Shown piece by piece: positions 2,007 through 23,265 of a stretch of DNA of 64,000 nt. The stretch spans positions 53,669 through 117,668 of the forward strand of contig CAZWAY010000005.1 of NCBI GenBank assembly GCA_964631945.1. The letters run 5' to 3'. Both the position numbers and the translations under genes were made by a program. Below the pieces are notes generated by a model that ran no database searches, was not told where the DNA came from, and saw nothing but the letters and a program-made list of their open reading frames with translations. The stretch comes from an uncultured Planctomycetaceae bacterium. Its GTDB lineage: Bacteria; Planctomycetota; UBA1135; GCA-002686595. How positions within the stretch are numbered: position 1 is the stretch's first letter; each line of letters opens with the position of its first letter.

Positions 2007-2834
2007 TTGCGAGCGGAGCGCGCCGCGTGCGAAGCTGCACCGATGGCCAAGGCCGCCAGAGGCGCGCGCAAGGAGACGGCGACCCCAGCGAAGGAAACTG
2101 CCCGGGCGAGACGCGCGTCCCCTGCAGAGTCCCGGACCGTGGCGGGCGAGGACAGCTCCGAGCTGCGCGCGCGGCTGGCACGCGCGCTGCCCGAGCCGCG
2201 CTGCGAGCTCGACTTCGCCGACGCCTGGCAGCTCCTGGTCGCCACCATCCTCTCGGCCCAGAGCACGGATGCGCGCGTGAACCAGGTCACACCCGCGCTG
2301 TTCGCGCGCTGGCCGACGCCGGCCGCGCTCGGCGCGGCGACCCAGGCCGAGGTGGAAGGGGTCGTGAAGAGCACCGGCTTCTTCCGCAACAAGGCGCGCG
2401 CGATCCGCGAGGCCAGCCAGCAGCTCGTGGCGCGCTTCGGCGGCGAGGTGCCGCGCGACTTGCAGGCCCTCCTCGGCCTGCGCGGCGTCGCGCGCAAGAC
2501 CGCCAACCTCGTGCTCGGCACGGCCTACGGGCTGGCCACCGGGATGATCGTGGACACGCACGCGGCGCGCGTCGCCCAGCGCCTGGGGCTCACGCGCGCC
2601 AGCGACCCGCTGGAGATCGAGCGCGACCTGTGCGCGTTCTTCCCGCGTGCGGAGTGGGTCGCGAGCGGGCACCGCCTGGTGCTGCACGGGCGCTACGTGT
2701 GCAAGGCACGGGCGCCGCGCTGCGCCGAGTGCCCGCTGAACGAGCTGTGCCCGGCGCGCGCGGCCAGCGCGGAGGGCGCGCTCTCCGAGCGTGAGCTCGG
2801 CCAGGCCCGGCGCGTGGCCGCGCGCGGCGCGTAG
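2007..2834 (+). CDS. nth: Endonuclease III (DNA glycosylase/AP lyase) with a basic N-terminal extension
   Basis: HhH-GPD motif LLGLRGVARKTANLVLGTAYG, catalytic VDTHAARVAQRL, and a 4Fe-4S loop CKARAPRCAECPLNELC. Alternative start at M13 (nt 2043). Confidence 0.85.
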   Translation: MRAERAACEAAPMAKAARGARKETATPAKETARARRASPAESRTVAGEDSSELRARLARALPEPRCELDFADAWQLLVATILSAQSTDARVNQVTPALFARWPTPAALGAATQAEVEGVVKSTGFFRNKARAIREASQQLVARFGGEVPRDLQALLGLRGVARKTANLVLGTAYGLATGMIVDTHAARVAQRLGLTRASDPLEIERDLCAFFPRAEWVASGHRLVLHGRYVCKARAPRCAECPLNELCPARAASAEGALSERELGQARRVAARGA

Positions 2835-2835
2835 G

Positions 2836-3792
2836 TCAGCGCCGCGGCCGACTCGTGTCGCCCTGCGTCTCGGCCAGGCCGACGGCGTTCTTCAGCTCCT
2901 CGCGGTCCGGGAAGAGCGCGAGCCCCGCGCGCCAGGTCGCCAGCGCCTTGTCGCGCTCGCCCGCGGCCTGCTGCATGTTCCCGAGGAACAGGTAGGTCAT
3001 CGCGAACTCGGGCCGCGGCGGCTGCGTGGCCTGCTGCTCGAGCAGGGTCTCGAAGTTCTCGATCGCCTCCGGGCCGCGTCCGAGGAAGGCCGGCCAGTTG
3101 GAGAGCGAGACGGCCTTCGAGAAGCGCGCCGACCAGTTCTCGTCGTCCAGCGCCAGCGCGCGGTCGAAGGCCGCGTCGGACTTGTAGGCCAGCGGCCCGG
3201 CCTCGGGCGAGTTGCCCACCCCGAACAGCTTCTGCAGGTAGGCGTGCCCGAGCGCGATCTGCAGCTCGACGTTCTGGGGATCCTCGGCCGCGAGTTTCTC
3301 CATCGTGGCCACGTACTCGTCGATGCGCCCGTTCTCGCGCAGGGCCTGGAAGATCTCCTGGCGCTCGACGTTGTCGAAGCCGGTGGCCGACAGCGCGCGC
3401 ACGAGCTCCAGCATCGGGATGCTGGCGAGGTCGACCTCGCCCGGCTTCAGGGCGACGGGCGCGCGCGTGGCGCCGTGCGCGCCCGGCTCCGCCGGCGGGT
3501 GCGCGGCCTGCCAGCGCGCCAGCGCGGCGGCGATCTCGGACTCGCCGAGCTCGTTGCCGGGGACGGGCGCCGCCACCAGGGTGTCCGCGCGTTGCTCGAG
3601 CGCGGCGGCCAGGCGCCGGTTCTCCAGGCGCAGTCCCTCGAGCGCGGCGCGCAGCTCGGCCGCGCGCGCGCGCTCCACGGCGGGCGCCTCGTGCTCGAGC
3701 CCCGCGCGCGCGGGCTTCGCCAGGGAGCGCGCCCCGAAGGCGGCCACGGCCGCCACGAGGATCGTCGGCACGATCGTCACAAGGATCTTCAT
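2836..3792 (-). CDS. Membrane-anchored coiled-coil protein with C-terminal TPR-like domain (paralog A)
   Basis: Real start is MKILVTIVPTILVAAVAAFG at residue 164 of ORF 2836..4281. N-terminal TM helix, then a coiled-coil (LRAALEGLRLENRRLAAALEQ), then a helical-repeat domain (QIALGHAYLQKLFGVGNSP...WSARFSKAVSLSNWPAFLG...YLFLGNMQQAAGERDKALATW). The ATG overlaps the TGA of the upstream gene (TGATG). Confidence 0.6.
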   Translation of the reverse strand: MKILVTIVPTILVAAVAAFGARSLAKPARAGLEHEAPAVERARAAELRAALEGLRLENRRLAAALEQRADTLVAAPVPGNELGESEIAAALARWQAAHPPAEPGAHGATRAPVALKPGEVDLASIPMLELVRALSATGFDNVERQEIFQALRENGRIDEYVATMEKLAAEDPQNVELQIALGHAYLQKLFGVGNSPEAGPLAYKSDAAFDRALALDDENWSARFSKAVSLSNWPAFLGRGPEAIENFETLLEQQATQPPRPEFAMTYLFLGNMQQAAGERDKALATWRAGLALFPDREELKNAVGLAETQGDTSRPRR

Positions 3793-4673
3793 CAGCGTGC
3801 CCTCGCTTCCGTCTTCCGGCGCAGCTGCTCGTTGCCGGGGAAGCGCGCCGCGCCGCGCTGCCAGGTGGCGCGGGCCTTCTCGCCCTCGCCCATCTGATCG
3901 TAGAGGTTGCCGAGGAAGGTGTAGGTCCAGGCCTGCTTGGCCGAGGGCGCGGCGTGCTCCTGTTGCTCCATCAGGATCTCGAACTGGCGCACGGATTCGC
4001 CCTGCTTGCCGAGGAAGGTCGGCCAGTTGGAGAGCGCCATGGCCTTGTTGAAGCGCGCCTCCCAGTGCGTGTCGTCGAGCTCCAGCGCGCGGTCGAAGGC
4101 CCGGTCGGCTTTCTCGCCCCAGACCGAGGCCAGCGGGCCGATCCCGACGTCGAAGAGCTTCTGGATGTAGGCCTGGCCGAGCTCGCTCTGCAGGTCGGGG
4201 TTGTTCGGCGCGAGCCCGGCCTGGCGCTCGATCTCGGCCAGCACGGCGTCGATGCGCTTCTCGTCGCGCAGGGTCTGCCACAGTGCTTCCAGCTCGTCAC
4301 CCTCGACCTGGCCCGTGAGGATGCGATCGGCGATCGCGGCGCCCTCGAGGTCGGCCGGAGCCGAGCCGCTGGAGTGGTCCGAGCTCGCCTCGCCGCCGAC
4401 ACGCTTTGCCATGTAGGCCGCGATCGCCTCGTCGAGGTCCTGCGCGGGAACGCGCTGGGCGACCGGGGCGCTGGCGGGCGCGCTCGGCAGCGTCGCCAGG
4501 CGCTCGGCCAGGCGGGTCTGCTCGGCGCGCAGCTCGGCCAGCGCCGCAAGGAGCTCGGAGCTCTCGGGGGCGGCGCCGCGGGCCGCGCGCTCGGGCGCGG
4601 CCAGACGCGTGCTCCCGTAGCCGATCAGGGCGGCCACGACGGCCGCGATGGGGAGGTGGATCCAGTTCTTCAT
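3792..4673 (-). CDS. Membrane-anchored coiled-coil protein with C-terminal TPR-like domain (paralog B)
   Basis: C-terminal 293 aa of ORF 3792..6878, starting MKNWIHLPIAAVVAALIGYG. Same architecture and clear sequence similarity to paralog A (LGQAYIQKLFDVGIGP...WEARFNKAMALSNWPTFLG...YTFLGNLYDQMGEGEKARATW). The remaining 735 upstream codons of the ORF are Arg/Gly junk, antisense or out of frame to the anti-sigma gene. The start coordinate is plus or minus 1 nt. Confidence 0.6.
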   Translation of the reverse strand: MKNWIHLPIAAVVAALIGYGSTRLAAPERAARGAAPESSELLAALAELRAEQTRLAERLATLPSAPASAPVAQRVPAQDLDEAIAAYMAKRVGGEASSDHSSGSAPADLEGAAIADRILTGQVEGDELEALWQTLRDEKRIDAVLAEIERQAGLAPNNPDLQSELGQAYIQKLFDVGIGPLASVWGEKADRAFDRALELDDTHWEARFNKAMALSNWPTFLGKQGESVRQFEILMEQQEHAAPSAKQAWTYTFLGNLYDQMGEGEKARATWQRGAARFPGNEQLRRKTEARAR

Positions 4674-4783
4674 GGTTTGCTCGACGGGGTCTGCGGGGTC
4701 CGGGGCGGGCGGATCCGGCCCTCGGCTCGTCCTCTTCTTGTCCTCACCGCGCTCTTTCCTTCGCCGTTTCCCGCGGAAGTCCG

Positions 4784-7210
4784 CTAGCGCGGCGCGGGCG
4801 CCTGGCTCGCGGGCTCCGAGCGGGGCGCCGCGTCGGCGGGCACCAGCACGAGCAGCACCTCGGGCACGCTGCCCAGCTCGAAGCGGAACTCGACCGGCGT
4901 GCCCTGGTAGCCGGCCAGCTGGGCCACGACTCGGTAGCGGCCGGGCCGCAGGCCATGGGCGCGGAAGCGTCCGGCCGAGTCGGTCAGCGGCAGACGCGCG
5001 AACAGGTGCTCGCCGCCCTGGGCGTCGTAGAACACCACCGCCGCGCCCTCGAGCGCGCGCCCGTCGCCGTCGCGCACGAGCACGTCCGCCGGGCCACCCG
5101 CTTCCAGCGCGAGCTCGAGCTCGCGCGGCACGCCTTCGGCCCCGCTCTCGGACACGGTCACGCTCTCGCTCTGCGCGAAGCCGAGTCCGGGGCGGGTCGG
5201 GTAGGCGACGACGTGGTAGGTGCCGGGACGCAGCTGGGTGAAGGCGAAGCGTCCGTTCTCGTCGCTCAGGCCGAAGGCGTTGAAGGACGTGCGGCCGCCG
5301 CCTTCCTCGCGCATCATCATCAGAGCCGCCTGCCCGGTCGGCTCGGCGCTGTGCGCGTCGAACACCGAGACCGTCAGGCTGCCCGTGGGAACGCGCACGT
5401 CGCGCTCGACGTCCAGGACGTCGCGCGTGAGCTCGAACGCGTCCACGCAGCGCAGCTCGCGCCCGAGCTGGTCGATCAGGAACAGCTGATAGCGGCCCGG
5501 GCGCACGCCCTCGAAGGCGTAGGCCCCGTCGGCCAGGGTCGTGGTGGCGACCCAGTCCTGGTTCCAGCTGGCCGTCTCCATGTCGAACAGGCCCAGGTTC
5601 TGGAGCGCGAGCGGCACGTCCGCGCGCCCGAGGACCCGCCCGTGCAGGCGGATGCCGCGGCGCGCGGCGGCGAAGTCGGCGGTGATCGTCTGGCCCTCGA
5701 CGACCTGCACCGGGCGCACCTCGGGCCGCTCGCTGGCCGTGGCCGAGTCGCGGCTCATCATCACCACGATCATGGTCGCGGCCGGCAGGCGCTCGAAGCG
5801 ATAGCGTCCGTCGGCGTCCGTGCGGGTGTGGGCGTAGGACATGCGCGTGCGCTGGGCATCGTCCATGGCCACGATCACGAGCTGGGCCTCGGCACGCGGT
5901 CCGCCGTCCTCGCGCGTGACCCGGCCCTGGACCACGCCGCCCGCGCCGAGCGTGAAGACGAGCTCCTCGTCCCGCCCGCGCGGCGCGCGCACGGCGTCCT
6001 TCCAGGCCGGGGCGAGGTCCTCGGCGCCGGCGCGCAGGGTGTGCGTGCCCGGATGGAGGTGCGCCAGCTCGAAGCGTCCGTCGGGACCGGTGCGCGCCTG
6101 GATCGGCAGCCAGTAGGCGAGCTCGGAGAGGGGGAGCGAGAAGAACAGACCGTCGCTCGGGACCTCGTCCTCCGAGATCACCCACGCGTTCGGGACCGGG
6201 TTGCCGTGCTCGTCGAGCACGCTGCCGTGCACGCTGACGCCGGGCACGAGCTCGGCCCGCAGCCGCGGGAGCTCGTCCGCGAGCTCGAACTCGCCCAGCG
6301 CGCACAGCGCGTAGCCGGGCGCGTGCACGAACACGCGCTGCTTGCCGGCGGGCGGATCGGGCCAGCGGAAGGTCCCGTCGCTGCTCGTGAAGGAGCGCAC
6401 CTCGGGGGGCGGGGTCTGGTTGCTGCGGCGCTCGGCCAGCAGCGCCACGCGGAAGGCGCCGAGCGCGGCGCCGCCCTCGGCGACCACGACCTCGCCCGCG
6501 AGGACGCGCGCGGCGGCGCTGGCGGCCAGCGTGCCCGCGGCCACGGGCGCGGGCGCGAGCGGCTCGCGCGGCGTGCTGGGTGTCGCGCTCGTGAGCGGCT
6601 CGGTCCGTCCCTGGGGCGGTGCACCCAGGACTCGGGCGACGCCGCGCGCGAGCTCGAGGCGCTCGTCGCCGCGCTGGAACCAGGCCGAGCCGTCGCCGAG
6701 CGTGGCGCGCACGCCCGCCGCCTCCTGCTCGAGCGCGAGCTCGGAACGCGAGCCCACGTGCACGAGTCCCGCCGCCAGCCGCACCTCGAGCTCCGCGTCC
6801 TGCGGCGTGACCACCCGCAGGGTCGGCGGGACGAAGTCGAGCCCGCGCGCGCGCTCCTCCGCGGCGGCCGCGCGCCACGCTCCGCCGGGCAGGCCCAGCG
6901 CGACCTCGCCGCGCGCGAGCAGGCGTTGGCGCGGGTCGTCCGCTTCGCGTGCGAACAGGCGCCAGCCCAGGAAGAGCGCCAGCGCGGCCGCGGCCAGGAG
7001 CGCGACCCTGTGCAGCGGCCTCGGGAGCTGCCGGAGCGTGCCGGTGCGCGCGCGCCGGGTGCCGGCGCGGCGCGCGACCTCGCTGCGGCGCGCGACCTCG
7101 CTCAGGAACAGCGCCTCCAGCCGGTCGCGGAAGGGCGGTGCGGGCAGGGCCGGTACGTAGCTCCGGCGCAGCAGCAGGCGCAGGTTGCGTTCCAGGACGT
7201 CCGCGCTCAC
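4784..7210 (-). CDS. Anti-sigma factor: N-terminal cytoplasmic domain, one TM, and a large extracytoplasmic region with 5-6 CarboxypepD_reg-like repeats
   Basis: In ORF 4784..7576. GTG start VSADVLERNLRLLLRR... overlaps the TGA of the sigma gene (GTGA). TM is VALLAAAALALFLGW. Repeats: DGRFELAHLHPGTHTL, DADGRYRFERLPAATMIVV, DGAYAFEGVRPGRYQLFL, ENGRFAFTQLRPGTYHVVAY, DSAGRFRAHGLRPGRYRVVAQ. Confidence 0.7.
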   Translation of the reverse strand: MSADVLERNLRLLLRRSYVPALPAPPFRDRLEALFLSEVARRSEVARRAGTRRARTGTLRQLPRPLHRVALLAAAALALFLGWRLFAREADDPRQRLLARGEVALGLPGGAWRAAAAEERARGLDFVPPTLRVVTPQDAELEVRLAAGLVHVGSRSELALEQEAAGVRATLGDGSAWFQRGDERLELARGVARVLGAPPQGRTEPLTSATPSTPREPLAPAPVAAGTLAASAAARVLAGEVVVAEGGAALGAFRVALLAERRSNQTPPPEVRSFTSSDGTFRWPDPPAGKQRVFVHAPGYALCALGEFELADELPRLRAELVPGVSVHGSVLDEHGNPVPNAWVISEDEVPSDGLFFSLPLSELAYWLPIQARTGPDGRFELAHLHPGTHTLRAGAEDLAPAWKDAVRAPRGRDEELVFTLGAGGVVQGRVTREDGGPRAEAQLVIVAMDDAQRTRMSYAHTRTDADGRYRFERLPAATMIVVMMSRDSATASERPEVRPVQVVEGQTITADFAAARRGIRLHGRVLGRADVPLALQNLGLFDMETASWNQDWVATTTLADGAYAFEGVRPGRYQLFLIDQLGRELRCVDAFELTRDVLDVERDVRVPTGSLTVSVFDAHSAEPTGQAALMMMREEGGGRTSFNAFGLSDENGRFAFTQLRPGTYHVVAYPTRPGLGFAQSESVTVSESGAEGVPRELELALEAGGPADVLVRDGDGRALEGAAVVFYDAQGGEHLFARLPLTDSAGRFRAHGLRPGRYRVVAQLAGYQGTPVEFRFELGSVPEVLLVLVPADAAPRSEPASQAPAPR

Positions 7211-7854
7211 GCGTAGCCTCCGCGCTTCTTGGCGAGCAGCGTGAAGACCTTGCCGAAGGCCGTGCGCGCGCGCTGCAGCGTCGATTCGGCGGCCTTCTCG
7301 TGCTTGCCGGCGCGCGCCGCGATCTCGGCCGTGCTGAGCTCCTCGACGTACTTCGCCAGCAGCGCCTCGCGGTAGTCGGGCGGCAGCGAGGACAGCGTCG
7401 CGCCCACCAGCTCGCGCGTCTCCTCGCGCTCCAGCACGTCGTCCGGCAGCGGCTCGCGGTCGATCGCCATCAGCATGGCCTCGATCTCGGGATCGGCCTC
7501 GGCCAGCACGTCCTCGAGCCGCACCGGGCGCTGGCGCCGGCGCTGGGCGCGGATCTTGTTCTTGGCGATGCCGCACAGCCAGGTGTGCAGGCTGGCGCGT
7601 CCGTCGAAGGCCGCCAGGCGCTCGAGCGCCGTCAGGAAGGTGTCTTGCACCAGGTCCTCGGCCAGCACGCGGTTGCCGCCCACGCGGTAGTGCACGAACT
7701 CGTACAGCGCGCCCAGGTGGAGGCGGAAGAAGCCCTCGGCCGCCAGGCGGTCGCCGGCCAGGATGGCGTCGCGCGTGGCGAGGTCGGGAGGGCGGAGCGG
7801 GACCTGCACGGGGCCTTGGTGCCCGCCGGGCGCGGGGTCCTTCGCTCTTTCCAT
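7207..7854 (-). CDS. ECF-family RNA polymerase sigma factor
   Basis: Region 2 LAEDLVQDTFLTALERL and region 4 LPPDYREALLAKYVEELSTAEIAARAG. Start is MERAKDP at 7854, preceded by AGGAA five nt upstream. The ORF track begins at 7896 (alternative start). Gene order is sigma then anti-sigma, same strand, with a 4-nt overlap. Confidence 0.8.
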   Translation of the reverse strand: MERAKDPAPGGHQGPVQVPLRPPDLATRDAILAGDRLAAEGFFRLHLGALYEFVHYRVGGNRVLAEDLVQDTFLTALERLAAFDGRASLHTWLCGIAKNKIRAQRRRQRPVRLEDVLAEADPEIEAMLMAIDREPLPDDVLEREETRELVGATLSSLPPDYREALLAKYVEELSTAEIAARAGKHEKAAESTLQRARTAFGKVFTLLAKKRGGYA

Positions 7855-7953
7855 GGATTCCTGCCGCCTCGGGCGGGTGGGCACGCCGGCCGCCACCTTG
7901 CCCTCCCGCGCTCGCCCTGGCTAGGCTCGCCGGGGGGGAGCGACTCGAACACC

Positions 7954-8445
7954 ATGAAGACCGACCCCCTCGCGCGCGAGGTCCTGGCGACCTGGAAGCG
8001 CCACCAGCAGATCCTGGTCACGCTGCTGCAGCGCATCCCCGAGAAGCGCCTCGGCGCCCTGCCGGCCCAGTCCAAGGGCCGCGACGTCGCCCGCCAGTTC
8101 GCGCACATGAACCGCAATCGCCTGGGCTGGCTCCACTTCCACGCGACCGGCGCGCGCCCCGAGCTGCCCACGAGCTCCAAGGGCGAGCGCCCCGGGAAGA
8201 AGGAGCTCCAGGCCGCCCTGAGGGACTCCGGCAAGCGCGTCGAGGAGCTGCTCGGAAGGGCCCTGCGCAAGGAGGCGCGCATCCGCCTCTTCGGCAAGTC
8301 GCCCGTGCGCTGGCTGGGCTACCTCGTCGCGCACGAGTCCCACCACCGCGGCCAGATCCTGCTGGCACTGAAGCAATCGGGCTTCGCCCTCGACGAGAAG
8401 GTCACGGTCCAGGCGCTGTGGGGAAAGTGGATCTTCGGGAAGTAG
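7954..8445 (+). CDS. DinB/YfiT-like (DinB_2 superfamily) metal-dependent hydrolase-like protein
   Basis: C-terminal 163 aa of ORF 6949..8445: MKTDPLAREVLATWKRHQQILVTLL...HMNRNRLGWLH...VAHESHHRGQILLALK (His triad pattern). Divergent from the sigma gene. Confidence 0.7.
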   Translation: MKTDPLAREVLATWKRHQQILVTLLQRIPEKRLGALPAQSKGRDVARQFAHMNRNRLGWLHFHATGARPELPTSSKGERPGKKELQAALRDSGKRVEELLGRALRKEARIRLFGKSPVRWLGYLVAHESHHRGQILLALKQSGFALDEKVTVQALWGKWIFGK

Positions 8446-9318: not shown

Positions 9319-11265
9319 TCAGCCCTCCTTGCGCAGCGCCGCGAGGATGCGCTCGAGCCAGCGCGCGGAGCGGTCGAGGCCACCGGGGCGCGAGCGCAGC
9401 AGCCACAGCTCGCGGTGACGCTGGATCAGGGGCTCGAGGAACTCGGCCAGCGTCTCGCGTCGGCGTGCCGGTAGTTCTTCGAGCCCACGACCCTCGCCGG
9501 CCTCGAGGCGCCATTCGCCGAGGAAGCAAGTGAAGCGGAGGAGCTCGGCGGCCCACGACAGTTCTTGTCGGGCCAGGACGCCCTCGGTCGTCCTGGGAGC
9601 ATCGCCGCGGATGGAATCTCCGCCGAGGGAGGTCATGCGGGCCACGCGCCGAAGCCTCTCCGTATGGAGTCCGCGCAACTCGGGCGGCGGGAACGGCTGG
9701 TCGAACCTCGTGAGCAGCAGCGACAGCGCCGAGGCGTTGCGCACGGGCCGAGCGCATTCCGTTGCGAGCCCCCCGAGTCCGCTCATTGCGCCACCGAGGG
9801 GGCTCTGCGGGTCGCCGAACAGGTGCAGGTTCAGCAGTCTGGGAAGGGGCCACACGCCGCTCCCGCGCGCGTCGGCCGTCGGATTCCAGGCGAGATCGGC
9901 CGCCCGCAGGTAGCCGCTCCAGCTCACGCTCGGCGGCTGCAGGTGCCCGCGGTCGCCCCAGTCGGTGATCAGCAGTCCGCGCGCGCCGCGCTCGGCGCCC
10001 CAGCGCGCCGCCGAGGCGACGTTCGCGAGCATGTTGTCGATGCGCCCGCCGATCGACTGCCACGAGCCCGTGCCGGGGCAGACGTAGAACGGCAGGCCAG
10101 CGTCGGCGAGCGTCTTCGTCTGTTCCTCGAACGGGTGGTCGGCCTCGTAGCCCCACAGGCACGCGACCGCGTCCTTCGGCACCTCGGGCACGAGCTCCGC
10201 ATGATTCAGCAGGATGTCGGCCCAGAACTGCATGCGCCTGCCGCGCGCGCTGACGAGGCCGTGGACCGACCTCAGGAAGCCGAGGTAGACGCGCCCGACG
10301 CCCTGCGCGCGGATCGCGGCGGCGGAACGGCCCGGCCGGCCCTCGTCGCCCAGGTCGATCGTCTCGTCGAGCCCCACGTTGAAGTCGCCGCTCGTGAAAC
10401 ACGGCAGCAACTCGTCGTAGAGCCCGCCGAGGAACGCGAGGCTCCCCGGATCCGTGGGGCACAGGCTGAAGGGCTCCGCGTGCGTCTCACCCGCGCCGAG
10501 GAACGGGTGCACGAGGCCCTCGGGCACCTCGGCCAGGTGGCGGTACTCGGAATGCTTCAGCCAGTGGTGCAGGTGCCCGAAGCTCTGCTGGTTGGGGACG
10601 AGCTCGACCCCGTGCGCGGCGCAGTGGCGGTCGAGGGCGCGGATCTCGTCGTGCGTGAAGGGATCGACGCCGCGCCAGATGCGCTCGTGCGCCCGGTAGG
10701 CGAAGGCGTGCTCGCAGTAGAGCTGCAGCTCGTTCAGCTTCCACTCGGCGAGCCGCTCGACGAGCGCGAAGAGAGCGTCCATGCGCGGCACGCGGTCGCG
10801 GCTGACGTCGAGCATCACGCCGCGGCGTTCGAACGCGGGTGAGTCCTCGATCGCCAGCGCCGGCAAGGCGAGCTCGTGCCGCTGTCTGGGTGCGCCGCCT
10901 TCTGCTCCCTCGACCTGCGCCGTGCGCACGAGCTGCAGCAGCGTGCGCAGGCCGTGGTTCAGCCCGACCCCGCGGCTCGCCACGAGGCGCACGAGCCCCG
11001 GCTCGATCGTGAGTCCGTAGCCCTCGCGCGCATGTCCCGAGCGTCCGTCGAGCACGAGCTCGATCGCCTGCGGGCCCACGCCGAGAGCCACGCCGCGGCG
11101 CTCGAGCTCGAGGCGCAGACCATCCAGCGCCGGCGAGGCGAAGCCCGGAGGCGGCCGCAGGGCGAGCGGCGGCGAGAGCCGGAAGACGCCCGGACGCCGC
11201 TCGATCCGGCGCGGCGCGGGCAGCAGGAGATCCAGGCACGGGTCGAACGCGCTCATCGCGGGCAT
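9319..11265 (-). CDS. Glycoside hydrolase family 20 beta-N-acetylhexosaminidase
   Basis: RGVMLDVSRDRVP, ELVPNQQSFGHLHHW, and DETIDLG in GH20 catalytic (beta/alpha)8 context. 648 aa. Alternative start at M4 (nt 11256). Confidence 0.85.
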   Translation of the reverse strand: MPAMSAFDPCLDLLLPAPRRIERRPGVFRLSPPLALRPPPGFASPALDGLRLELERRGVALGVGPQAIELVLDGRSGHAREGYGLTIEPGLVRLVASRGVGLNHGLRTLLQLVRTAQVEGAEGGAPRQRHELALPALAIEDSPAFERRGVMLDVSRDRVPRMDALFALVERLAEWKLNELQLYCEHAFAYRAHERIWRGVDPFTHDEIRALDRHCAAHGVELVPNQQSFGHLHHWLKHSEYRHLAEVPEGLVHPFLGAGETHAEPFSLCPTDPGSLAFLGGLYDELLPCFTSGDFNVGLDETIDLGDEGRPGRSAAAIRAQGVGRVYLGFLRSVHGLVSARGRRMQFWADILLNHAELVPEVPKDAVACLWGYEADHPFEEQTKTLADAGLPFYVCPGTGSWQSIGGRIDNMLANVASAARWGAERGARGLLITDWGDRGHLQPPSVSWSGYLRAADLAWNPTADARGSGVWPLPRLLNLHLFGDPQSPLGGAMSGLGGLATECARPVRNASALSLLLTRFDQPFPPPELRGLHTERLRRVARMTSLGGDSIRGDAPRTTEGVLARQELSWAAELLRFTCFLGEWRLEAGEGRGLEELPARRRETLAEFLEPLIQRHRELWLLRSRPGGLDRSARWLERILAALRKEG

Positions 11266-23180: not shown

Positions 23181-23265
23181 TGGTGCCCGGGACTGGATTC
23201 GAACCAGCATGGTGTTACCCGCTAGCACCTCAAGCTAGTGCGTCTGCCAATTTCGCCACCCGGGC
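23181..23265 (-). tRNA. tRNA-Leu (anticodon GAG), type II with long variable arm, CCA encoded
   Basis: Reverse complement reads GCCCGGG-TG-GCGAAATTGGCAGACGC-A-CTAGC-TTGAGGT-GCTAG-[13-nt variable arm]-GCTGG-TTCGAAT-CCAGT-CCCGGGC-A-CCA. The 7-bp acceptor stem is perfect, the anticodon stem is 5 bp, and the T-loop is TTCGAAT. Confidence 0.85.

Follow-up and report, generated by a model that had tools for sequence, protein, structure and literature searches.

The window analysed here is a 64-kb stretch of DNA (64,000 nucleotides; contig CAZWAY010000005.1) from an uncultured Planctomycetaceae bacterium, and all positions below are counted within it. It contains a module of four genes, which encode an extracytoplasmic function (ECF) sigma factor, a predicted anti-sigma factor and two TPR proteins. 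The module probably works as an autoregulated unit, in which a FecR-like anti-sigma factor would hold the sigma factor; once released, the sigma factor would transcribe its own operon from a promoter-like motif (P1) and the pair of TPR genes from a second copy of this motif (P2). The overall system is an ordinary kind of bacterial stress switch, composed of a sigma factor and a membrane-bound inhibitor. The host is a planctomycete related to Engelhardtia and Saltatorellus. The deep-branching ‘Saltatorellus’ group, to which Engelhardtia mirabilis belongs, was described as shape-shifting, FtsZ-less and rich in ECF sigma factors (bioRxiv 10.1101/817700).

The region 2836-7896 was read on the minus strand as four genes, in the order of the ECF sigma factor, the 808-aa anti-sigma-like protein, TPR-A and TPR-B (Table 1). 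A previous sequence-only reading of the same DNA had announced a five-gene operon, while its own text named four genes; the five-gene version was rejected, as the 5' neighbour of the sigma gene (DinB-like, 7954-8445) lies on the plus strand. The gene junctions given by that reading were exact. The sigma stop codon overlaps the GTG start of the anti-sigma gene in a GTGA at 7207-7210, and the anti-sigma open reading frame (ORF; 7210-4784) ends with a TAG at 4786-4784. A gap of 110 nt (4783-4674) follows. TPR-A extends over 293 codons from the ATG at 4673 to the TGA at 3794-3792, and this stop overlaps the ATG of TPR-B (3792-3790) in a TGATG at 3790-3794; TPR-B has 318 aa and ends at 2836. The operon had also been called tightly coupled. 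Both overlaps are real, but the 110-nt gap carries the second copy of the promoter-like motif. In related genomes, the sigma, anti-sigma and TPR genes keep this order on one strand in 61 of the 73 loci with enough upstream sequence, as the proposed synteny check was meant to ask. Moreover, the 4-nt NTGA overlap between the sigma and anti-sigma genes is retained in 51 of 52 related loci, which bears out the idea of a dedicated sigma/anti-sigma module. Scans of 2500-8300 found no housekeeping-type (sigma-70) promoter, and the terminator scan of the same region gave a single chance-level match on the other strand; the Rfam and tRNA scans returned nothing in the module region.

The sigma factor was assigned by its domains. 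Both Sigma70_r2 (E 5e-14) and Sigma70_r4_2 (E 1.5e-14), which had been named earlier as a check, were found in Pfam, and the NCBIfam model TIGR02937 matched with 94.2 bits (cutoff 42.9); the NCBIfam sigma subfamily models all remained below their cutoffs. With only sigma-2 and sigma-4 domains in a protein of ~200 aa, it belongs to the group 4 ECF sigma factors. Among the solved structures, SigW and RpoE (1OR7, E 1.5e-10) are the closest by sequence, rather than a FecI-like sigma factor. It carries neither a C-terminal extension nor any other obvious regulator within its 200 aa.

A two-block motif was found before the sigma genes. The consensus is composed of GAAnnnGCGAAGGAT, ~14 unconserved bases and GGCACCAAG, with GGCAC(C/G)AAG as the aligned second block. 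Of 48 loci searched for dyads upstream of the sigma gene, 22 contain GAAGG and GCAC separated by ~16 nt, and in no case does this pair lie on the opposite strand; the dyad recurs in the intergenic gap that separates the anti-sigma gene from the TPR gene. A position weight matrix (PWM) was trained on the sigma-upstream instances only, and the window and its closest relative were left out. In 862 kb searched on both strands, sites of at least 14 bits precede a sigma gene in 48 cases and a TPR gene in 27, and only 4 lie at other places; none of the 27 TPR-upstream sites had been used in training. Within the window, sites of at least 11 bits occur at exactly two positions in 64 kb on both strands, which are P1 (7851-7815) and P2 (4770-4734). 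An independent pattern (GCGAAGGA-N16-CA) matched the window twice, at the same two sites, against 0.17 matches expected. An exact 18-base form of the motif gave 35 matches over the metagenome collection, of which 8 immediately precede a sigma homologue and 3 a TPR homologue, and two metagenome contigs contain both copies ~3 kb apart; the other matches are mostly in unrelated, often AT-rich DNA, as chance predicts. The two blocks are asymmetric, their spacing and orientation are fixed, and the spacer is unconserved. We infer that the motif is the promoter of this sigma factor.

The position of P1 also bears on the sigma start codon. The sequence-only reading had placed the start at ATG 7854 or GTG 7896 and asked for an ECF-type promoter upstream of them and upstream of 4673. 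Motif copies are indeed present at 7851-7815 and in the gap before 4673, but the first copy is downstream of the proposed starts, which lie upstream of or across the conserved motif and are misplaced by 15 or 29 codons. P1 falls within the N-terminal extensions proposed from both codons. In three related loci (L005, L028 and L057), an in-frame stop codon occurs in or right after the motif, and the motif is therefore non-coding. When translation is taken to begin at the nearest in-frame start codon behind the motif, nearly all of the 49 examined loci that carry the motif encode a sigma factor of 200-217 aa; in most loci this codon is 7-17 nt past the second-block CAC (modes 9 and 16 nt). Since the motif lies inside the proposed N-terminus, stops occur in relatives and the products are consistently of 200-217 aa, the sigma gene most likely starts at GTG 7809 and encodes 200 aa. 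Were the motif the promoter, the mRNA of the sigma gene would probably be leaderless or carry a leader of only a few bases. The automatic call of the sigma orthologue in L001 (L001:6884-7531) begins at the ATG equivalent to 7854, upstream of the motif, and gives 215 aa; such over-extended sigma gene calls may also exist in other family members.

The co-occurrence of gap and motif across loci is the strongest available argument for the dependence of the TPR genes on the sigma factor. When the gap between the anti-sigma and TPR genes is at most 30 nt, the motif is found in 0 of 21 loci; with a gap of 61-250 nt it is found in 21 of 26, the window among them. Gaps longer than 250 nt contain it in two of three loci, and in both the TPR gene is 1.2-1.6 kb away with the motif directly upstream of it. 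The TPR genes are most likely sigma-dependent, because they are either joined to the sigma operon without a motif or provided with their own copy. The earlier suggestion that these genes are tied to the sigma factor agrees with this pattern.

A perfect copy of the motif, GCGAAGGATCCCGCGCG...GGCACCAAGG, was also observed at L114:320-350 on the plus strand, and is identical in L085 and L100 (metagenome contigs). It is ~45 nt before the gene of a small secreted protein (MRFIRLAPLAALALL...), which we take to be DUF1579-like, and two beta-helix secreted proteins follow. A related sigma factor might use this site as an additional target, or the match could be fortuitous.

The 808-aa protein is predicted, from sequence profiles and a structural model, to be a FecR-type anti-sigma factor in which the transducer-binding end is replaced by a six-domain stalk. 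This assignment was made because a remote FecR-like domain sits just outside the membrane. In the alignment of the family (A3), the motif vLExNLxxLLxRaYxPvxPxxxFRxxL is conserved in the N-terminus, and a basic stretch and a single hydrophobic helix come after it; this N-terminus would presumably bind the sigma factor. For residues 1-235, the AlphaFold2 (AF2) model contains two helices on the cytoplasmic side (3-16 and 25-51), a transmembrane helix (64-90) and a beta domain (100-195) with a predicted local distance difference test score (pLDDT) above 94. When 28 anti-sigma N-terminal regions were combined into a profile, it matched 6OVK_R, the C-terminal signalling domain of PupR, with E 2.5e-6, and 4M0H, a putative anti-sigma factor, with E 0.017; the top four Foldseek matches of the AF2 model were to 4M0H, 6OVK and 4M0N, with E-values of 0.04-0.09. 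Thus, a periplasmic domain of the PF04773 fold follows the single transmembrane helix, remotely related and recognized by profile and fold only.

The outer part of this protein is formed by CarboxypepD_reg repeats. The model PF13620, whose absence was to count against the sequence-only reading, matched with E 8e-54 in six stretches (residues 239-311, 328-417, 428-512, 523-596, 615-694 and 711-785). That reading had described 809 aa with a short cytoplasmic domain, one transmembrane helix and five to six repeats; its architecture stands with six repeats, but the length is 808 aa plus a stop codon. Six repeats are present in 46 and five in 7 of the 53 family proteins, which come from the 52 related loci and the window. 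In public records, the homologues are named ‘protocatechuate 3,4-dioxygenase beta subunit’ or ‘carboxypeptidase-like regulatory domain protein’, and none is named ‘anti-sigma factor’. A protein of 1083 aa (P0280, JGI) combines Sigma70_r2, r4 and CarboxypepD_reg repeats; it could represent a fusion of the sigma and anti-sigma factors, or the gene call may have run through the 4-nt overlap.

Other anti-sigma features were sought in the same protein. No FecR-type N-terminal sigma-binding domain was matched in Pfam at E up to 1, and the cytoplasmic part has ~60 aa in two helices. For the class I zinc-binding anti-sigma factors (ZAS, zf-HC2, RskA), the HxxxCxxC motif is absent, residues 1-66 contain no Cys, the sole His is at position 66 just before the transmembrane helix, and Pfam gave no match. 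A Gly-Thr autoproteolytic site in the periplasmic domain is a feature of FoxR and FecR. No conserved Gly-Thr was seen in alignment A3 by eye, a weak test, and the G is followed there by V, L, R or A. A word-index search with the N-terminal 201 aa returned no relatives, with Ala/Arg-rich candidates swamping the result. The C-terminal tails of the homologues, examined as a possible peptide ligand for the TPR proteins, are not conserved beyond a frequent final Arg.

The two downstream proteins had been described as paralogous, and this was verified: TPR-A and TPR-B share 38% sequence identity over ~300 aa and their whole length (BLASTP, E 1e-50). TPR-A has a TPR_17 match above the Pfam cutoff; the TPR matches of TPR-B are sub-threshold only. 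The AF2 model of TPR-A has an overall pLDDT of 85, with values above 95 for residues 110-293, and shows helix-turn-helix repeats in a superhelix; fold searches with it found generic TPR proteins only. The sequence-only reading had called both proteins TM/coiled-coil/TPR-like. The TPR fold and the hydrophobic segment were confirmed, but the coiled coil amounts to a three-heptad leucine pattern on a predicted helix (L40, L44, L47, Q51, L54, L58 and L61), and the hydrophobic N-terminal segment may be a cleavable signal peptide instead of an anchor. The N-terminal flank of this segment is more positive than the C-terminal flank in 57 of 88 family members, which points to an N-in, C-out orientation. 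The most conserved stretch of the family is W..ARF.KA.ALSNWP.FLGK. Our best guess is that the TPR proteins are membrane-proximal protein-binding scaffolds in the periplasm.

Homologues of TPR-A were found only in Planctomycetota metagenome-assembled genomes (MAGs) and metagenomes. The family profile matched 638 clusters at E <=1e-30 among 1.84 billion representatives, and the lengths are almost all 290-315 aa among the best 150 representatives listed. A scan of species-representative genomes gave 80 loci, one of them in the cultured Engelhardtia mirabilis Pla133 (L061; NZ_CP036287.1, 4,990,947-5,003,540). The genes flanking the module in the window (GH20, HD, EndoIII, DUF2071 and aminotransferase) are common to close relatives only, and a search across the loci for a further conserved gene behind the TPR gene found none. 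The conserved unit is thus the sigma, anti-sigma and TPR genes, because their order is kept, the flanks change and no fourth gene accompanies them. A second TPR copy in tandem is found in a subclade (L001, L002, L004, L005, L010, L011, L030 and L042) and in the window. The second copies of these eight related loci group with TPR-B as one orthologous set, and the tandem duplication is therefore old.

Table 1. Positions of the genes, protein regions and motif copies of the module in the window
Feature	Position	Strand	Description
ECF sigma factor	7207..7809	-	200 aa from GTG 7809 (most likely start); ORF open upstream to ATG 7854 and GTG 7896
P1 motif	7815..7851	-	GAAAGAGCGAAGGAC-N13-GGCACCAAG; 27.7 bits; ends 9 nt before GTG 7809
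Predicted FecR-like anti-sigma factor	4784..7210	-	808 aa; GTG start overlaps the sigma stop (NTGA overlap); one transmembrane helix
Cytoplasmic N-terminus, residues 1-63	7022..7210	-	Two helices and a conserved motif; presumed sigma-binding part
Transmembrane helix, residues 64-90	6941..7021	-	Hydropathy maximum at residue 69; AF2 helix 64-90
FecR-like beta domain, residues about 100-195	6626..6913	-	Just outside the membrane; profile, AF2 and Foldseek
Six tandem CarboxypepD_reg repeats, residues 239-785	4856..6496	-	Transthyretin-like beta-sandwich; Pfam PF13620, E 8e-54
P2 motif	4734..4770	-	GAAACGGCGAAGGAA-N13-GGACAAGAAG; 22.1 bits with the leave-out PWM; in the 110-nt gap, 89 nt before ATG 4673
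TPR-A	3792..4673	-	293 aa; hydrophobic segment 6-23, leucine-zipper helix 38-61, TPR superhelix ~106-293
TPR-B	2836..3792	-	318 aa; TPR-A paralogue; ATG overlaps the TPR-A stop

These data can be arranged into a mechanism for the FecR-like switch. At rest, the 808-aa single-pass protein would bind the 200-aa sigma factor through its short cytoplasmic N-terminus and so keep it at the membrane. As to the nature of the signal, the mode of release and the role of the TPR proteins, we infer that an extracytoplasmic signal would be received by the FecR-like domain and the stalk of six beta-sandwich domains outside the membrane, and that the sigma factor would then be released, presumably by regulated proteolysis as for other single-pass anti-sigma factors. 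The free sigma factor might act at P1 (7851-7815) to produce a leaderless or near-leaderless sigma/anti-sigma transcript, which would be a positive autoregulation; it might also act at P2 (4770-4734) in the 110-nt gap, which would boost the translationally coupled TPR-A and TPR-B. The TPR proteins would be tethered to the inner membrane or exported across it and would face outwards, where they could oligomerise, probably via the short zipper, and serve as protein-binding scaffolds in the envelope.

Several observations weigh against this scheme. The score of P2 is barely above the best shuffle: with an earlier PWM it reaches 22.5 bits, against a maximum of 21.3 bits in 20 shuffles of the window scored with the same PWM. 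The second block of P2 is moreover a variant, with GGACAAG in place of GGCACCA. For the anti-sigma factor, the Pfam search with the single sequence gave no anti-sigma family and no FecR match, and the cytoplasmic N-terminus is outside all Pfam anti-sigma families; the FecR assignment depends on the family-profile E-value of 2.5e-6 and on weak Foldseek E-values (0.04-0.09). For the TPR proteins, the positive charge in TPR-A of the window is greater on the C-terminal side of the hydrophobic segment than on the N-terminal side, and the topology of this protein is less clear than the family average. Finally, in 12 loci with enough upstream sequence, the TPR gene stands alone behind unrelated genes, with neither the sigma gene nor the motif nearby, and the TPR family is therefore not bound to this sigma factor.

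It is possible, if somewhat doubtful, that the TPR proteins belong to the sensor and not to the output. They would then be periplasmic partners of the anti-sigma ectodomain that set its threshold, in the manner of RseB with RseA or of a co-receptor; P2 would provide feedback, and the real regulon would lie elsewhere. This possibility is compatible with sigma-controlled transcription from both motif copies. In ~60 loci, the sigma/anti-sigma pair has retained the TPR gene as its sole neighbouring partner, and TPR domains are protein-binding modules without catalytic function. The uniform length of the family and its highly conserved loop ALSNWPxFLGK, a possible binding site, would also fit a co-sensor, and the small secreted DUF1579-like gene in L085, L100 and L114 might be an extra target of the motif. 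However, a regulon outside the module was sought only within the 64-kb window and, for the other genomes, within 12-kb pieces. The 12 loci that have TPR homologues without the sigma/anti-sigma genes nearby suggest that the TPR protein can work alone, and the anti-sigma tails, apart from their frequent final Arg, show no conservation that a TPR partner might read.

The motif could also be bound by a different regulator or sigma factor, or act at the RNA level, and the sigma operon and the TPR genes would then be co-regulated by something else; this is considered unlikely. The classical ECF promoter pattern is GGAAC, N16, CGTC, from which the motif differs, and the AAGGA in its first block is similar to a ribosome-binding site. 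This AAGGA is ~34 nt upstream of the start, however, which is too far for such a site, and the 7-17 nt between motif and start in most loci leave no room for a downstream promoter. The asymmetric blocks with fixed spacing and orientation are promoter-like and differ from the dyad of a dimeric regulator. Moreover, the motif occurs almost only beside this sigma family and its TPR partner, as an autoregulated ECF promoter predicts. Quite improbable is a third explanation, that the 808-aa protein is a co-transcribed, sigma-controlled envelope protein whose beta-sandwich stalk is structural or adhesive, and that the sigma factor is regulated by other means. It is matched by none of the anti-sigma models of Pfam or NCBIfam, and public records label its homologues as carboxypeptidase-like or as protocatechuate 3,4-dioxygenase beta subunit, but its gene directly follows the sigma gene with the 4-nt overlap in 51 of 52 loci, the short cytoplasmic N-terminus and single transmembrane helix are conserved, the nearest solved relatives of its FecR-like juxtamembrane domain are anti-sigma regulators, and the sigma factor itself has no C-terminal extension or other obvious regulator.

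A more far-reaching version of the FecR-like switch was given very little credence. In this version, the closed three-part circuit would exist only in Saltatorellus/Engelhardtia-type planctomycetes, and the fixed six-domain stalk would act as a ruler or mechanical probe of the periplasm width or the wall state. The zipper-TPR proteins would be its direct partners, and the regulon would be the module itself. If this were true, the module would couple envelope geometry to remodelling during shape change.

Comparison with known regulatory systems showed some similarities. As in the FecI/FecR-type systems (FecR, PupR and FoxR), the ECF sigma gene overlaps the gene of a single-pass regulator, which has a short cytoplasmic N-terminus and a periplasmic FecR fold. 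However, the protein of the window has no C-terminal STN-binding domain, and its last 570 aa are the six CarboxypepD_reg repeats; no gene for a TonB-dependent transducer is adjacent, and the neighbours are DinB, GH20, HD and EndoIII genes. It also differs in having no Gly-Thr site at the equivalent alignment position and no Pfam match to FecR or the FecR N-terminal domain, and its sigma factor is closest by sequence to SigW and RpoE among the solved structures, rather than to a FecI-like one. The module therefore shares only a part of the FecR definition, namely the FecR-fold domain and the single transmembrane helix.

In the SigI/RsgI systems of Clostridium thermocellum, a single-pass anti-sigma factor carries extracellular sensing modules, SigI is not an ECF sigma factor, and the outputs are cellulosomal enzymes. 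Homology aside, the module is similar to them in its outward beta-sandwich, carbohydrate-binding-like modules and in a probably autoregulating sigma factor with a small dedicated gene set; whereas the 808-aa protein has no RsgI_N match, its sigma factor is ECF and the predicted outputs are TPR proteins. The RpoE-RseA-RseB system is an autoregulated ECF operon, as the module probably is, in which periplasmic proteins are encoded after the anti-sigma factor, and RpoE is among the nearest solved sigma factors; whereas the anti-sigma factor of the window is unrelated to RseA, the TPR proteins are unrelated to RseB, and a second copy of the promoter-like motif is located within the operon. Unlike CpoB/YbgF of the Tol-Pal system, the TPR proteins have no YbgF model among their Pfam and NCBIfam matches, and tol-pal genes are absent from the context.

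The combination of an ECF sigma factor, a single-pass anti-sigma factor and an adjacent target is a textbook design, and the gain is incremental. No paper was found in the literature that joins ECF, anti-sigma and CarboxypepD_reg, or that describes an anti-sigma factor with a CarboxypepD_reg ectodomain. The article of Casas-Pastor 2021 (PMC7826278), its supplements aside, does not mention the CarboxypepD_reg domain. The module is a concrete and testable regulatory unit in a barely studied, ECF-rich and deep-branching lineage of planctomycetes, and supplies a defined promoter-like motif, a corrected sigma start and a probable leaderless transcript. Its predicted direct target family, with 638 clusters at E <=1e-30, is annotated no further than ‘TPR’. 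Public annotation could also be corrected, since the homologues labelled as dioxygenase or carboxypeptidase-like are predicted anti-sigma factors. Experiments are possible because the cultured Engelhardtia mirabilis Pla133 carries the module.

The neighbouring genes (GH20, HD, DinB, EndoIII, DUF2071 and aminotransferase) were considered as parts of the module and rejected, as they are common to close relatives only. The GH20 beta-N-acetylhexosaminidase gene (9319-11265, minus strand) lies close to the module, a few kb away at most, in 9 of 82 loci (L001, L002, L003, L004, L010, L011, L028, L030 and L079), and is on the other side of the module in the more distant L003, L028 and L079; this occurrence is too sparse for a functional link to be called. 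The stop codon of TPR-B (2838-2836, minus strand) and the end of the EndoIII-like gene (2834, plus strand) converge with one base between the stop codons, and any terminator must therefore lie inside the opposite gene. The sole Rfam/ARAGORN match in the 64-kb window is a tRNA-Leu (anticodon GAG) at 23181-23265 on the minus strand. In a groundwater MAG (L003:1-6424), two ~1230-aa Ser/Thr kinase + WD40 genes and a second ECF sigma gene adjoin the module; such a kinase-associated ECF arrangement is known from planctomycetes. The final Arg, often as ...PR or ...RR, is present in roughly half of the 53 anti-sigma homologues (in the window at 4787-4800). TPR-A (…ARAR) and TPR-B (…RPRR) also end with Arg, unlike the sigma, GH20, EndoIII and aminotransferase proteins encoded nearby.

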